Shown here piece by piece: positions 32,886 through 45,810 of a stretch of DNA of 64,000 bases. A program made the position numbers and the translations under genes. The notes beneath the pieces are model-generated. The model was given only the letters and a program-made list of their open reading frames with translations. It was not told the DNA's origin and did not search any database. The stretch comes from Candidatus Eiseniibacteriota bacterium. GTDB taxonomy: Bacteria > Eisenbacteria > RBG-16-71-46 > CAIMUX01 > VGJL01. Positions within the stretch are counted from its first letter, which is position 1; each line of letters opens with the position of its first letter. The stretch lies in assembly GCA_041946735.1 (NCBI GenBank), contig JBHGAY010000004.1, positions 1-64,000 of the forward strand. Reading direction: 5' to 3'.

Positions 32886-33923
32886 TCATCCTCCCAGGAG
32901 ACGAATGCTCGGGAGCGACACGCTCCCCGCAGATCGCTTGCCCGTCTCGACTGCGCGCTGGAACTCTTCCGCCCCTTTCGGCTTCTGCCACACGCTCTGC
33001 CGGATCGTCTGCGCGATCTCCTCGTCGGGCGCGCCACGCCGCAGCGGGCCGCGGAGATCGACGCCGAGCTGGGAGAAGAGGCACAGGCCGAGCCGGCCCG
33101 ACGCGGTCATCCGGATGCGGTTGCAGGCTCCGCAGAACGGGTCCGTCAACGAGGCGATGAAGCCGACGCCGCCGGCACCGCCCGCGAAACGGAAGCTCTC
33201 CGCGACCCGCGCGCCTCGCGCGGTCGCCGGTTCGAGCTTGCGCTCCTCCTCGATCCAGCTACGGACGCGATCGAGCGGAAGGACGAGATCCGGGCGCCAT
33301 GCGGTCCCGCAGAGCGGCATGAACTCGATGAAGCGGACCTCGATCGCGAGACGTTCGGCCATCTCGCAGAACGCGAGGACCTCGGCCCGCTCGAGATCGC
33401 GCATCGCCACGACGTTCACCTTCACGGCGAGCCCACTCGTGAGCGCCGTCTCGATCCCCCGCAGGACGAGGTCGATCTCGTCCCGGCCGGTGATGCGCTC
33501 GAAGCGCTGCCGATCGAGGCTGTCGAGGCTCACGTTCACGGAGTCGAGACCGGCGTCGGCGAGGCGGCGCGCGAGCGCGGAGAGGCGCGCGCCGTTCGTC
33601 GTGAGCGCGAGCGAGGCGATCCCTTCGATGCAGCGAAGGCGCTCGACGAGCGGGACCAGGTCGCGGCGCAGAAGCGGCTCGCCGCCGGTGAGACGGATCT
33701 TCCGGACTCCGAGGCGCGCGAAGATTCGGCATAGCCGCTCGATCTCTTCGGACGAAAGCAGCTCGTCGCGCGGCTGCAGCGCGAAGCCGCTCGCCGGGTG
33801 GCAGTAGGTGCAGCGGAAGTTGCACAAATCGGTCACCGAAACGCGCAGGTAGTCGAGCCGGCGGCCGTGGCGATCCTCGAGGCACGCCGAGCCCGTAGCG
33901 CGTTCCGCCGCATCCGGTCTCAA
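32886..33923 (-). CDS. moaA: GTP 3',8-cyclase (Moco biosynthesis radical SAM)
   Basis: YLRVSVTDLCNFRCTYC, RLTGGEPL, LTTNG, NVSLDSL, RFIEFMP, FCGACNRIR, C-terminal GG; TTG start overlaps chaperone stop (TTGA). Confidence 0.93.
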   Translation of the reverse strand: MRPDAAERATGSACLEDRHGRRLDYLRVSVTDLCNFRCTYCHPASGFALQPRDELLSSEEIERLCRIFARLGVRKIRLTGGEPLLRRDLVPLVERLRCIEGIASLALTTNGARLSALARRLADAGLDSVNVSLDSLDRQRFERITGRDEIDLVLRGIETALTSGLAVKVNVVAMRDLERAEVLAFCEMAERLAIEVRFIEFMPLCGTAWRPDLVLPLDRVRSWIEEERKLEPATARGARVAESFRFAGGAGGVGFIASLTDPFCGACNRIRMTASGRLGLCLFSQLGVDLRGPLRRGAPDEEIAQTIRQSVWQKPKGAEEFQRAVETGKRSAGSVSLPSIRLLGG

Positions 33924-34567
33924 CGTTCCGGCTCCTCCGCCGGCGCGGGCAGCCGGCCGCCGGCCGCGTCGACGACCGCGACGAGAAGCGAGAGGAGGTC
34001 GCGCAGGCATGGATAGGGACAGTCCGCGGCCTTCCCGGCCGCCAGGCCGACCCAGCTCGCGACGTGCCGCTCCAGGTACTCGGATCGAGCGCGCCGGATC
34101 TGCTCGAGACGCTCGGAATCCGTCTCCGCCGCCTCCCTCTCGCATAGATAGCCGAGGAAGTCGAGCTGGTGGCGGAGATGGTCGGAGGTCTCCTCGCTCC
34201 CCGCGGAGAGGCGCAGGCCGAACGCCGCGTAGAAGAGGATATTCTCGTGCAGGATCCGGGGGACCGGATCGCGGCGCAGATAGTGCGATTCGATCAGCGG
34301 GACGTGCGGATGCGGCGCGCCCACCTCGAACGTCTCGATGTATTGCGTCTCGTACTCCCTCGCGGACCGGGGAAGGGGCGCGGGTCCGGACAGACCGAGC
34401 CGGGCCGCGAGATCCGTCCAGGCTCCCCACGTTTCCTTCGATCGCAGGAACTCCCATTGCTCGGCGCCTGGGGGACGGAAGAGGTCGCGGACGAATCGAA
34501 AGGCCGAAGCGAGCGCGCGAGCCTCCTCGCGATCCTGCCCGTCCGTCGCCGGCGGGATGCCGCTCAC
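33920..34567 (-). CDS. TorD/DmsD/NarJ-like molybdoenzyme maturation chaperone
   Basis: YIETFEVG...PLIESHY, FYAAFGL, SDHLRHQLDFLGYL, YLERHVASW; GTGA-coupled. Confidence 0.85.
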   Translation of the reverse strand: MSGIPPATDGQDREEARALASAFRFVRDLFRPPGAEQWEFLRSKETWGAWTDLAARLGLSGPAPLPRSAREYETQYIETFEVGAPHPHVPLIESHYLRRDPVPRILHENILFYAAFGLRLSAGSEETSDHLRHQLDFLGYLCEREAAETDSERLEQIRRARSEYLERHVASWVGLAAGKAADCPYPCLRDLLSLLVAVVDAAGGRLPAPAEEPER

Positions 34568-35319
34568 GGGGCGCCCCCGATCTCGCGCAGCTCGTACCAC
34601 ACGCTGTAGAACTTCAGTCCGTCCCGCTGCTGCTTCTCGCCGTCCCAAACGGCAAAGGCGATGGGCGTCCCGGCGGCGGCCGGCGGGATCTGGAAGACGC
34701 ACTCCCAACCATCGGCCGTGCGTCGGACCGATCCGGGGATCGCTTGCCCCGTGCGGGTCGTCGTCCCGCGGCCGGCCGCGATCAGCCGCTCGAAGCCGCG
34801 CGTCCCGTGCCAGTAGTAGAGGTCGACCGGATGGGCCGCGTCTCCCATCATCAGCGACGGGAAGCTGGCCGCGTCCTGCGCGTTCTGGACGTTCTGCGGG
34901 AACATCACGCAGGCGGCGTCCGCAAAACGCTCGATATCGAGCGAATGCGCCTTGTAGATCGTCGAGTCGCCGGCATCGGCGATCCTTTCCGGGGACCGCG
35001 CACGGCTGTCGGTCGGATCCGCCCACCGCATCCGCACGAAGGTCGCTTCACCATTGGAGAGCAGCGACACCGCGGCGGCGGGACGCGCGCCATCGTCCGG
35101 GGGATCTCCGACGTAGAGCGGCGGCGTGCGATTCAGGGCGACCTGCGTCTCGATCGCCCCCCGCCAGGCCGGCTCCTCTCCGGCGACGAGGCTCGCCGTC
35201 GCGGCGATCGTGCGACCGCACGGGATCGTCGCTTCCGCGGCGGCCCGGCCGGCGACGCCCGCCAAAAGCACGAGGAGCACGAGGAGCACGAATCCGAGAA
35301 GAATGCGCTGCCGCGTCAT
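34564..35319 (-). CDS. Heme b gamma subunit (EbdC/SerC/DdhC-like) of type II DMSO reductase family enzyme
   Basis: Sec signal, RMRWAD, FADAACVMFP, LMMG (Met ligand), AFAVWDG...RDGLK (Lys ligand). Confidence 0.85.
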   Translation of the reverse strand: MTRQRILLGFVLLVLLVLLAGVAGRAAAEATIPCGRTIAATASLVAGEEPAWRGAIETQVALNRTPPLYVGDPPDDGARPAAAVSLLSNGEATFVRMRWADPTDSRARSPERIADAGDSTIYKAHSLDIERFADAACVMFPQNVQNAQDAASFPSLMMGDAAHPVDLYYWHGTRGFERLIAAGRGTTTRTGQAIPGSVRRTADGWECVFQIPPAAAGTPIAFAVWDGEKQQRDGLKFYSVWYELREIGGAP

Positions 35320-45283: not shown

Positions 45284-45774
45284 CGCGTCCGCCGTCCCGC
45301 CGCGGCCACCTTGCCGCGCGCCTGCTGCGCCACTTTGCCGCCGGGCGCCTGCTCCGCCGCCTTGGCGCCGCGCGCCTGCGCGACCGCCTCGCCGAGCGTG
45401 CGCTTCCGGAGGGAATCGACCAGCGCGTCTCTCAGCTCGCTCCATTCCCAGTGAAGGATGCAGGCGCTCGTGTCGGAGCAGCGCGATTGCCCGAGCAGGC
45501 AGACCCGCTTCGTCCCGAACGTGTCGAATGCCTGGACGATCTGCAGCAGCGAAATGCGGCCGGCGGAGCGAGCGAGGCGAAAGCCTCCCGTCTTCCCCCG
45601 CTGGCTTTCCAGGATCCCTGCGGAGGCGAGCACGCGAAGGATCTTCGCCAGATATTGCGGAGGAAGATCGACGACGCGAGCGATCTCGCGGTTGAGGAAC
45701 CAGTCTCTCTCCTCGCTCTCGGCCGCCATGTACGCGAGGGCGCGGATGGCGTATTGGGCGCTCGTGGAAATCAT
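45280..45774 (-). CDS. Rrf2 family transcriptional regulator with Fe-S ligating Cys
   Basis: SAQYAIRAL, YLAKILRVL, SQRGKTGGF, CLLGQSRCSDTSACILH. Confidence 0.9.
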   Translation of the reverse strand: MISTSAQYAIRALAYMAAESEERDWFLNREIARVVDLPPQYLAKILRVLASAGILESQRGKTGGFRLARSAGRISLLQIVQAFDTFGTKRVCLLGQSRCSDTSACILHWEWSELRDALVDSLRKRTLGEAVAQARGAKAAEQAPGGKVAQQARGKVAAAGRRTR

Positions 45775-45781
45775 GAAGGGG

Positions 45782-45810
45782 ATATTAGGACCCGTTAGTC
45801 CGAAATGCAA
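45782..45810 (-). promoter_or_regulatory. sigma70 promoter with internal palindromic operator
   Basis: Minus strand TTGCAT-N17-TAATAT, 7 nt before the rrf2 ATG; TTnGGAC-N6-GTCCnAA dyad at 45785-45804. Confidence 0.72.

Follow-up and report, generated by a model that had tools for sequence, protein, structure and literature searches.

The stretch of DNA analyzed here (the window) comprises 64,000 nucleotides from a Candidatus Eiseniibacteriota bacterium (GenBank assembly GCA_041946735.1, contig JBHGAY010000004.1, positions 1 to 64,000). It carries on its minus strand a run of ten genes encoding, in order, an Rrf2-family regulator, an FAD- and NAD(P)-binding iron-sulfur (Fe-S) flavoprotein, a Rieske protein, a cytochrome b, a hexahaem cytochrome c, the alpha, beta, gamma, and delta components of a molybdoenzyme, and the GTP 3',8-cyclase MoaA (Table 1). 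Genes were called from family matches and from their junctions, with inferred start codons, raw lists of open reading frames (ORFs) being noisy at ~69% G+C, and families were assigned by comparing Pfam and NCBIfam models with their curated cut-offs. This approach recovered the ten co-oriented genes, and the families, that had been described in the initial annotation of the window. Recalculation of the nine junctions also gave an identical result, namely six 4-nt overlaps, one 16-nt overlap, and two gaps, i.e. stop/start overlaps at seven of the nine junctions. The rrf2 and flavoprotein genes overlap by GTGA, the flavoprotein and Rieske genes overlap by 16 nt, and gaps of 16 and 34 nt separate the Rieske gene from the cytochrome b gene and the latter from the hexahaem cytochrome gene, respectively. 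The five following junctions, from the hexahaem cytochrome gene to moaA, are ATGA, GTGA, ATGA, GTGA, and TTGA. The rrf2 gene had been annotated with a TTG start at position 45810. Its presence is confirmed, but the ATG at 45774 is the more likely start since the Pfam match opens at residue 14 of the longer form. The protein has three C-terminal cysteines and is likely to be a regulator of the Fe-S type.

Table 1. Features of the gene cluster and of its surroundings (window coordinates). The last column gives the number of other loci retaining the gene on the same strand and in the same order, over the loci with sufficient contig.
Feature	Position	Strand	Family support	Retained
mobA, molybdenum cofactor guanylyltransferase	45854..46486	-	NCBIfam NF001457, E 2.2e-20, below cut-off	
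mobA/rrf2 spacer, 79 nt	45775..45853	-		
Rrf2-family regulator	45280..45774	-	PF02082, 103 bits; TIGR00738, above cut-off	
FAD/NAD(P)-binding Fe-S flavoprotein, GltD/NfnB-like, 661 aa	43298..45283	-	Pyr_redox_2, Fer4_20, Fer4	65/65
Rieske [2Fe-2S] protein, twin-arginine (RR) motif, N-terminal anchor	42846..43313	-	PF00355	73/73
Cytochrome b6/subunit IV fusion, 542 aa	41201..42829	-	PF00033	76/76
Segment encoding the cytochrome b C-terminus	41201..41300	-		
Membrane-anchored hexahaem cytochrome c, 529 aa	39577..41166	-	Pfam; six CXXCH	
Alpha, catalytic subunit with molybdenum-bis(molybdopterin guanine dinucleotide) (Mo-bisMGD), exported by twin-arginine translocation (TAT), Nar type (pNarG-like), 998 aa	36584..39580	-	TIGR03479	62/63 (at least 50% identical)
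Beta, four-cluster Fe-S subunit, NarH-like, 423 aa	35316..36587	-	TIGR03478	60/61
Segment encoding the beta C-terminus	35316..35600	-		
Gamma, secreted haem-b EB_dh subunit, Sec-type signal	34564..35319	-	PF09459	59/60
Delta, NarJ/TorD-type chaperone	33920..34567	-	PF02613	58/59
moaA, GTP 3',8-cyclase	32886..33923	-	TIGR02666, 340.8 bits, above cut-off	
PNGase F-like gene with FlgD_ig tail	46483..48105	-		
Large beta-helix protein with FlgD_ig tail	48197..51733	-		
Adjacent GatE/GatB-type and GatD-type amidotransferase genes	26200..30766	+	PF02934, PF02637; Asparaginase and GatD_N	

The alpha subunit scored above the cut-off of the type II dimethyl sulfoxide (DMSO) reductase family (TIGR03479; 1115.9 bits for a cut-off of 984.75), as did the beta subunit for TIGR03478 (493.2 versus 480.7 bits). 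Gamma and delta exceeded the cut-offs of PF09459 (43.6 versus 33.3 bits) and PF02613 (57.6 versus 22.2 bits), and were below those of TIGR03477 (90.9 versus 169.85 bits) and TIGR03482 (92.5 versus 152.3 bits), respectively. In a search of the PDB, the best solved matches of alpha were the perchlorate reductase subunit PcrA in its W461E (5e7o, 890 bits) and wild-type (4ydd, 886 bits) forms, aligned over residues 62 to 983 of alpha, ahead of Escherichia coli NarG (546 bits), EbdA (395 bits), and NxrA of Kuenenia (216 bits). The third position of the aromatic gate is occupied by Trp in PcrA and by Glu in all NarG proteins (PMC8301774). In alpha, this residue is Glu (NHYVGQE; GQW in wild-type PcrA and GQE in the W461E mutant), the Phe and Tyr residues of the PcrA gate being retained. 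The motif containing the Asp ligand of molybdenum, SFYDWYCDLPP, is that of E. coli NarG (FYDWYGDHPT in PcrA), and the motif of the Fe-S cluster FS0, HSANCTGSCSW, retains the Asn residue of NarG (HGVNCTGSCSW in E. coli). The SFYDWYCDLPP and FS0 motifs are conserved in the 63 alpha subunits of the cassette described below. The twin-arginine pair at residues 23 and 24 of alpha is also conserved, as is that of the Rieske protein.

Comparison with annotated plasmids identified the narG products of Haloferax mediterranei (46.0% identity) and Haloferax volcanii (45.5%) as the best matches of alpha, for 35% identity with ClrA and ~35% over half of the length with bacterial NarG. Beta is 56% identical to Haloferax NarH. 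Gamma, in which a Met and a Lys residue are conserved over 56 sequences, is 30% identical to the Haloferax EB_dh-related protein and equivalent to haloarchaeal Orf7. Relatives of alpha are numerous in metagenomic data (5836 at E ≤ 1e-30 among 8000 scored) and are publicly annotated as 'complex iron-sulfur molybdoenzyme family reductase subunit alpha', 'nitrate reductase alpha subunit', or 'nitrate reductase / nitrite oxidoreductase, alpha subunit'. In a protein library clustered at 50% identity, the clade to which alpha belongs was reduced to a single representative (P0170, 1564 bits), the next match scoring 667 bits (43% identity). The signature pair SFYDWY.DLPP and HYVGQE was found in ten of 50 aligned rows, i.e. 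eight from the cassette clade, Haloferax NarG, and one NarG-like protein of 1246 residues; none of the 50 rows had Trp at the gate position. In a FastTree phylogeny (SH-like support, midpoint root, PcrA not among the rows), the cassette rows formed a clade (support 100) nested in a larger Nar/Nxr clade (17 rows, support 100) together with Haloferax NarG and long NarG-like and nitrite oxidoreductase (NXR)-like proteins; the 33 other type II rows stood apart from it. By its signatures and family, alpha is predicted to be a periplasmic nitrate reductase of the Nar type, and the molybdoenzyme half of the cluster appears orthologue-like to the haloarchaeal periplasmic enzyme, pNarGH.

The beta subunit ends with a low-complexity extension of ~90 residues terminated by a CxxCx6C motif. 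This motif recurs, in alignment, in relatives from loci other than those of Terriglobia (L006, L009, L010, L013, and L015). It is missing in L002 and in loci of the Terriglobia type, in which beta ends at about residue 330.

The Rieske protein had as its best solved matches, the top two of 72 in the PDB, 9rk4 (82.8 bits) and 9rk3 (62.5 bits). These entries correspond to Kuste4569 and Kustd1480, the Rieske proteins of two Kuenenia complexes bearing an NAD(P) oxidoreductase (Hauser et al., 2025; PMC12954380). Box II reads CPCHGSRF (Ser/Phe), which corresponds to the S-F 'Mid+' type of Kao and Hunte. The cytochrome b was closer to b6 chains (142 bits) than to bc1 chains (97 bits) of the PDB. Over 69 sequences, the haem-b ligands H143, H157, H256, and H271 are invariant, and so is the APWY motif of the quinol-oxidation (Qo) site (PAKAPWYFLG). 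Kao and Hunte (2014; PMC4122944) described an 'APWY clade' of mixed phyla, tied to medium- or high-potential Rieske proteins. Hydropathy analysis predicted nine helices (4 + 5), with five in subunit IV, a number also stated for both Kuenenia complexes (Hauser et al., 2025; PMC12954380). An additional residue, His74, is conserved in at least 97% of the 69 sequences and located 200 to 203 residues before the conserved residues R274, R276, and K277. In AlphaFold3 models of the Kuenenia complexes, the two cytochrome b monomers hold an extra haem b through His43 or His62, close to Arg247 or Arg266/Lys267, which lie 204 residues after the His (Hauser et al., 2025; PMC12954380). Judged by this spacing of residues, His74 is a likely candidate for the equivalent of the His residue that holds the modelled extra haem of Kuenenia.

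The hexahaem cytochrome c consists of an N-terminal helix, a three-haem part resembling cytochromes c7 and c3, and three class I cytochrome c domains, and its six CXXCH motifs are invariant in an alignment of 14 sequences. At the C-terminus of the cytochrome b, the last helix contains a conserved Cys510, and the protein ends with an invariant residue, His542. Its conserved tail, RGPNW.FYW...WP.H, is predicted to face the periplasm and might there provide a ligand or a docking site for one of the haems of the hexahaem cytochrome.

The flavoprotein matched PRK12771 (NAD(P)-binding protein; 394.7 bits, below cut-off), and its best matches in the PDB were modules of the Nfn/GltD type. It is a cytoplasmic protein with no signal peptide and combines an N-terminal Fer4_20 domain with a C-terminal 2x[4Fe-4S] domain. 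Invariant cysteines are found in the Fer4_20 part and in the C-terminal part, the latter containing two CxxCxxCxxxCP motifs and further Cys residues. These sets would suffice for four or more Fe-S clusters. Prediction of a complex between residues 60 to 542 of the cytochrome b and residues 500 to 661 of the flavoprotein gave scores of 0.31 and 0.18 in two runs, for a mark of 0.32, a result that speaks neither for nor against their association. We lean, on balance, towards the flavoprotein being a subunit of the cytochrome bc complex.

To determine how far this arrangement is conserved, the 482 relatives of the hexahaem cytochrome detected at E ≤ 1e-10 among 8000 scored candidates were considered, and 14 sequences were aligned as the basis of the search. 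Scanning one genome per species returned 167 stretches matching the pattern, 137 of which encode a hexahaem relative. The best 80 loci were kept, taken with 10 kb on each side, and searched by tblastn with eleven proteins of the window, counts being made over the loci with sufficient contig. The core of the cluster is a cassette of eight genes encoding the flavoprotein, the Rieske protein, the cytochrome b6/subunit IV fusion, the hexahaem cytochrome c, alpha, beta, gamma, and delta. All eight were found in the same order and on the same strand in 51 of the 52 loci with room on both sides, indicating that the arrangement is more than a chance association. The synteny search called for by the initial annotation thus showed that the bc and molybdoenzyme genes are syntenic elsewhere, across many phyla. 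The titles of the locus records include Eisenbacteria, Krumholzibacteriia, Omnitrophota, Hydrogenedentota, Ignavibacteria, Terriglobia/Acidobacteriota (many), Zixiibacteriota, Binatia, Polyangiaceae, Anaeromyxobacteraceae, and others, all 80 loci being from metagenome-assembled genomes (MAGs), some bins of which may be wrong.

The initial annotation had also asked whether the phylogenies of the subunits are congruent. Distance matrices of the flavoprotein, cytochrome b, hexahaem cytochrome, alpha, and beta, computed for the window and 42 loci, were correlated, bc against molybdoenzyme genes included, with Mantel coefficients r of 0.94 to 0.98, values that include the contribution of shared host descent. 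The correlation between cytochrome b and alpha (r = 0.972; 43 sequences) was as tight as that between alpha and beta (0.957). No sign of module swapping was observed within the cassette clade.

The genes flanking the cassette behaved differently. Of the 61 loci with sufficient contig, 19 had a homologue of rrf2 on the same strand within 2.5 kb upstream, ten of them within 200 nt; the gene is therefore a frequent, non-universal companion of the cassette. The moaA gene was found near the cassette in one of the 80 other loci, and mobA likewise in one; both are local accessory additions. The distribution of the cassette is broad across phyla and sparse within lineages. In the phylum of the window, eight of 201 sampled genomes matched the hexahaem profile at E ≤ 1e-60; only three of these (G000, G070, and G083) matched the full profile, the other five matches covering class I cytochrome c domains only. 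In the class of genome G201 (locus L016, titled Terriglobia), 12 of 301 genomes matched at E ≤ 1e-100.

Two loci differed in their terminal enzyme. In L076 (titled Candidatus Xenobia; positions 6098-17899) and L056 (titled Nitrospirales; positions 2777-10397), the genes for the flavoprotein, the Rieske protein, the cytochrome b, and the hexahaem cytochrome are followed by a gene for an NxrA of the Kuenenia/Nitrospira type. The alpha subunit of L076 scored 920 bits against 7b04_B and is followed by beta, gamma, and delta; that of L056 scored 556 bits against 7b04_B, the contig ending inside the gene. Altogether, an alpha subunit of the Nar/Nxr type was encoded in all 63 loci with room after the hexahaem cytochrome gene (62 of the pNarG type, and L076). 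The variants L076 and L056 indicate that the bc module has been joined to two lineages of periplasmic nitrate/nitrite enzymes.

The genome to which the window belongs is 94.8% complete, and the absences reported here refer to this assembly. PF02665, the family of NarI, was not found anywhere in it, in agreement with the initial annotation, in which no NarI-type subunit had been seen. Chlorite dismutase (Cld; PF06778), NirK, and RuBisCO were not found either, other CO2-fixation pathways not having been searched, and NirS was represented by fragments of 19 to 31 bits only. No second Nar, Nap, or Fdh-like protein was detected at E ≤ 1e-10. NrfA is encoded elsewhere in the genome. The cytochrome b of the cassette is the only PF00033 match genome-wide. 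The genome encodes four matches to the COX1 family and two ActD proteins of alternative complex III (ACIII), each located ~5 kb from COX1 (G000 C6:117395-123816 and C33:21272-26943), so that ACIII can serve the oxidases and aerobic respiration. Three other carrier genomes contained five (two of them fragments of a single gene), three, and four cytochrome b matches, the cassette copy included.

Known systems resemble parts of the cassette. On pHM300 of H. mediterranei, the gene order is hypothetical-Rieske-cytochrome b-small ORF-narG-narH-EB_dh-TorD, and the shared genes stand in the same order as in the window. Haloferax pNar likewise comprises a TAT-exported NarG, a NarH, an EB_dh haem-b protein, and a TorD/NarJ chaperone, without NarI, and its NarG has the active-site signature described above. 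The haloarchaeal cluster, narB-narC-narG-narH-Orf7-narJ, was reported by Martinez-Espinosa (2007) and Yoshimatsu (2007), as cited by Baymann (2012; PMC3509893), with a similar logic proposed, i.e. a bc complex feeding a periplasmic Nar. In contrast to the window, the Haloferax cluster contains neither a cytochrome c gene nor a flavoprotein gene. Its cytochrome b is 28% identical to that of the window and has PDWF instead of APWY at the Qo site; the haloarchaeal cytochrome b is related to those of Actinobacteria and Thermus/Deinococcus (Baymann, 2012; PMC3509893). The two Rieske proteins align around the cluster-binding boxes only, and that of Haloferax is predicted to be of low potential (Gly type; PMC3509893), as opposed to the Ser/Phe type of the window. 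Since cytochrome b lineage and Rieske type both differ, the bc halves of the two clusters were recruited separately.

The other half of the cluster resembles Kuste4569-4574 and Kustd1480-1485 of Kuenenia, for which sequences were compared for the Rieske subunit, the other subunits being set against published descriptions. The likeness extends to a b6-type cytochrome b and a five-helix subunit IV. In the Kuenenia complexes, a hexa- or octahaem cytochrome c, hexahaem in one of the two, replaces cytochrome f, and the FAD of a cytoplasmic flavoprotein is reached through four Fe-S clusters (Hauser et al., 2025; PMC12954380). An octahaem protein resembling hydroxylamine oxidoreductase (HAO), Kuste4574, is encoded beside the complex in Kuenenia as its terminal N-oxide enzyme, whereas the window has a Nar-type molybdoenzyme in its place, and the hosts of the cassette are not anammox bacteria. 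The initial annotation had claimed that the operon merges the haloarchaeal and anammox designs. This fits our comparisons, the pNarGH half being haloarchaeal-like and the bc half of the Kuenenia NAD(P)-reductase type.

Four other enzymes share features with the molybdoenzyme of the window. PcrAB of Azospira (4YDD, 5CH7, and 5E7O) is periplasmic and shares the Asp ligand and the Phe-Tyr gate pair, but differs from the window by the gate Trp, the motif YGDHPT in place of YCDLPP, and the redox partners. E. coli NarGHI (1Q16) has SFYDWYCDLPP and the gate Glu in common with the window, as well as the Asn-containing FS0 motif (H-x3-C-x3-C). Its NarG is oriented to the cytoplasm, exceeds alpha by ~250 residues, and is held at the membrane by the quinol-oxidizing NarI, whereas the enzyme of the window carries a TAT signal, includes a gamma subunit of the EB_dh family, and lacks NarI. 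NxrABC of Kuenenia/Nitrospira (7B04), also periplasmic and composed of alpha, beta, and gamma, belongs to the same superclade, and the NXR-like rows of our alignment have FS0 and gate signatures unlike those of alpha. Finally, SerABC of Thauera selenatis was reportedly shown by Lowe et al. in 2010 to be fed by a quinol-cytochrome c reductase via cytochrome c4. SerABC is likewise a type II molybdoenzyme of the periplasm whose gamma subunit binds haem b, and it receives electrons from a bc complex via a c-type cytochrome, but this bc1 complex is a general one encoded elsewhere and the carrier is soluble. The window, in contrast, has a dedicated bc complex, a membrane-bound hexahaem cytochrome, and a flavoprotein in the cluster.

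Taken together, we consider it likely that the cluster is responsible for periplasmic nitrate reduction coupled to a bc complex, and would then specify a self-contained quinol:nitrate oxidoreductase. An anammox-like APWY Rieske/cytochrome b6-subunit IV complex would oxidize membrane quinol. The high-potential electron would be transferred from the Rieske [2Fe-2S] cluster to the hexahaem cytochrome, the haem b of gamma, the Fe-S chain of beta, FS0, and Mo-bisMGD. Alpha would reduce nitrate to nitrite in the periplasm, without the need for a nitrate importer, and NrfA would then convert nitrite to ammonium in the same compartment. Because there is no NarI, energy would be conserved by the bc complex rather than by a redox loop. 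Gene content, families, active-site signatures, export signals, conserved synteny, and co-divergence support the initial annotation as an architecture; complex formation, the electron path and its direction, and the substrate we infer, and the mechanism is to that extent unproven.

The second electron would cross the membrane on the b haems. The flavoprotein would be located on the negative (n) side of the cytochrome b dimer, and the low-potential branch of the bc complex is probably connected in this way to NAD(P)(H). Three fates may be envisaged for the second electron: a normal Q cycle, delivery to FAD and NAD(P)+ through the haem at His74 and then the Fe-S wire, or operation of the same wire in reverse, from NAD(P)H. 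The likeliest version of this branch would be the Kuenenia scheme, in which nitrate reduction would pull the second quinol electron uphill to NAD(P)+ by quinone-based bifurcation. The nitrate/nitrite couple has a potential of ~+420 mV. Values of ~-70 mV for menaquinol and -320 mV for NAD(P) were used by Hauser et al. (2025; PMC12954380), who cite Kartal (2013) for the bifurcation proposal. With these values, bifurcation would be energetically allowed since the gain of ~490 mV from menaquinol to nitrate exceeds the cost of ~250 mV. One electron would thus leave the APWY Qo site for nitrate and the other would reach NAD(P)+ via the b haems, the haem of the His74 pair, at least four Fe-S clusters, and FAD. 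We put forward the production of NAD(P)H by the flavoprotein in such a nitrate-driven reaction tentatively, as a possible outcome.

Several observations weigh against this interpretation. Alpha did not reach the cut-off of the canonical NarG model (TIGR01580; 645.5 bits for 1084.15). Enzymes related to alpha reduce chlorate, perchlorate, and selenate as well, and Nar and Nxr enzymes are reversible, a direction that sequence cannot give. In the b6 part of the cytochrome b, no Cys is conserved over the 69 sequences, Cys510 being the only conserved Cys of the protein, and position 92, which maps to residue 35 of spinach b6, is Ala. Residue 35 of spinach b6 is a Cys and the ligand of haem cN. The lack of a conserved Cys excludes a covalent haem cN, which is present in the Kuenenia models (Hauser et al., 2025; PMC12954380). 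The b6 and subunit IV moieties, fused in the window, are split in Kuenenia (Baymann, 2012; PMC3509893). According to Kao and Hunte (2014; PMC4122944), none of the bc complexes of the APWY clade had been characterized, and reverse operation is suggested for them, which would fit nitrite oxidation. The genome contains several NuoD genes (at least two complete), so that NADH oxidation needs no flavoprotein, and the need of a heterotroph for quinol-driven NAD(P)H is not obvious. Regarding transcription, a consensus scan detected no sigma-70-like site (1.2 expected) and five terminator-like sites (5.9 expected, i.e. not above chance), both searches being uninformative for this phylum. No RNA run was found to contain positions 36000 to 45900 of the window, the runs containing them being metagenome DNA; just two of these runs, one of them a possible source of the window, contained over half of the words sampled. 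The single promoter proposed in the initial annotation is kept here as putative.

The alternative that survives best is that the flavoprotein is the site of electron input. NAD(P)H would reduce quinone at or near the n-side site via FAD, the Fe-S clusters, and the extra haem b, thereby completing an NAD(P)H:nitrate chain in which the path from quinol to nitrate is unchanged. The architecture is the same in both cases, and the Fe-S/FAD wire is reversible in the related Nfn/GltD enzymes. The carriers are mostly heterotroph-like soil lineages with excess NADH, in keeping with the lack of RuBisCO in the genome. This option was discussed for Kuenenia by Hauser et al. (2025; PMC12954380), who judged it wasteful, as it would forfeit the ~250 mV separating NAD(P)H from menaquinone. 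With at least two complete NuoD genes in the genome, complex I can conserve that energy, and the Ser/Phe type of the Rieske protein, together with the high potentials measured for the Kuenenia Rieske proteins (PMC12954380), fits bifurcation. We therefore regard the feeding of NAD(P)H electrons into the complex as rather unlikely.

The cassette might also operate as a nitrite oxidoreductase, nitrite oxidation in the periplasm feeding the hexahaem cytochrome and the bc complex running in reverse to quinone or NAD(P)+. In addition to the reversibility of Nar and Nxr, the association of the same bc module with NxrA in L056 and L076 and the public annotation of some relatives as 'nitrate reductase / nitrite oxidoreductase, alpha subunit' are in line with this direction, as is the proposal that the APWY motif is typical of reverse-running bc complexes (PMC4122944). 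However, alpha has the signature of nitrate-reducing NarG and haloarchaeal pNarG, unlike the NXR-type rows, and its similarity to Kuenenia NxrA is limited to 216 bits. The presence of NrfA points to the consumption of nitrite, and RuBisCO, the only marker of CO2 fixation searched, was not found. Transfer of electrons from ~+420 mV to quinone or NAD(P)+ would require the proton-motive force, and bifurcation run in reverse would consume NAD(P)H. Nitrite oxidation is accordingly judged improbable.

Several points favor the reduction of another oxyanion (perchlorate, chlorate, selenate, or iodate) through the same wiring: among solved structures, alpha is closest to PcrA (886 bits); Clr, Ser, and Ddh are type II enzymes that also possess an EB_dh gamma subunit; and haloarchaeal pNar reduces (per)chlorate as well (PMC8301774). 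Opposing these points, the Glu of NarG replaces the gate Trp of PcrA, which is found in none of the 50 rows, identity with ClrA is limited to 35%, and representatives resembling Ser, Clr, and Ebd belong to the other main clade of the tree. The perchlorate reductase assignment suggested by the top match to PcrA was rejected in view of the Glu at the gate, the motif shared with NarG, and the lack of Cld in the 94.8%-complete genome. Another oxyanion as the substrate thus appears quite improbable.

That the bc and nitrate reductase genes are mere neighbors, the former encoding a general complex III for the oxidases, as the sole cytochrome b gene of the genome and the four COX1-family matches could suggest, was rejected as highly improbable in view of the 51/52 synteny and tight co-divergence across many phyla, the Nar/Nxr-type alpha subunit in 63/63 loci, the ACIII genes beside COX1, the additional cytochrome b genes of other carriers, and a distribution too sparse for housekeeping (full-length hexahaem cytochrome in 3/201 and 12/301 genomes).

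In support of the initial annotation, which had singled out the operon as its best candidate for an undescribed system, we found no published description of a bacterial cluster combining a Rieske/cytochrome b complex bearing a flavoprotein with a periplasmic Nar in the full-text literature, a corpus leaving most subscription journals outside its coverage, and the relatives are annotated generically. No such cluster is described in the accessible parts of Arshad (2015), Barnum and Coates (2022), Castelle (2013), Lücker (2013), and Wells (2023), or in those of Baymann (2012), Kao and Hunte (2014), and Hauser et al. (2025). The cassette, although widespread among uncultured bacteria, has apparently never been studied, and is a variant built from two known kinds of systems, haloarchaeal pNar coupled to a bc complex and the flavoprotein-bearing bc complex of anammox bacteria.

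Nitrate reduction by a periplasmic enzyme dependent on a bc complex would contrast with the textbook arrangement of bacterial Nar, which is oriented to the cytoplasm and does not involve the bc complex (Baymann, 2012; PMC3509893). Across many bacterial phyla, the cassette would represent a periplasmic type of Nar that depends on a bc complex. Some of the 'narG' signal recorded in the environment may therefore stem from an enzyme that differs in its bioenergetics and does not require nitrate to be imported. According to Hauser et al. (2025; PMC12954380), a driving reaction has yet to be proposed for one of the two Kuenenia complexes, and the question of quinol bifurcation to NAD(P)+ by Rieske/cytochrome b complexes has so far been stuck on slow-growing anammox enrichments. 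The complex of the cassette would be hard-wired to a defined high-potential acceptor in heterotroph-like lineages, making this question more tractable. If bifurcation does occur, a mechanism proposed only for anammox bacteria would be a widespread route from quinol to low-potential reductant in soils and sediments, with its terminal reaction defined and natural variants of the NXR type available. The latter, L056 and L076, offer a natural experiment in which the bc module was kept and the terminal enzyme swapped.

The co-oriented run extends upstream of rrf2 with mobA, the PNGase F-like gene, and the gene for the beta-helix protein. The mobA gene ends 79 nt before rrf2 and is overlapped by the PNGase F-like gene through TTGA. 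The FlgD_ig tail of the PNGase F-like protein is also present on the large beta-helix protein. Downstream, moaA is the last gene of the run, which is closed by a convergent DUF1579 gene. No Rfam match was detected at E ≤ 0.1 in positions 31000 to 52500, and this region therefore contains no molybdenum cofactor (Moco) riboswitch. The mobA/rrf2 spacer contains the hexamers TTGCAT and TAATAT, separated by 17 nt and ending 7 nt before the ATG codon of rrf2, a weak resemblance, and a 6-bp inverted repeat, GTCCGA-N20-TCGGAC, also weak since arms this short can occur by chance. Elsewhere in the window, genes of the GatE/GatB and GatD types are adjacent on the plus strand. GatDE is the archaeal Glu-tRNA(Gln) amidotransferase, and its occurrence in a bacterial genome would be unusual.

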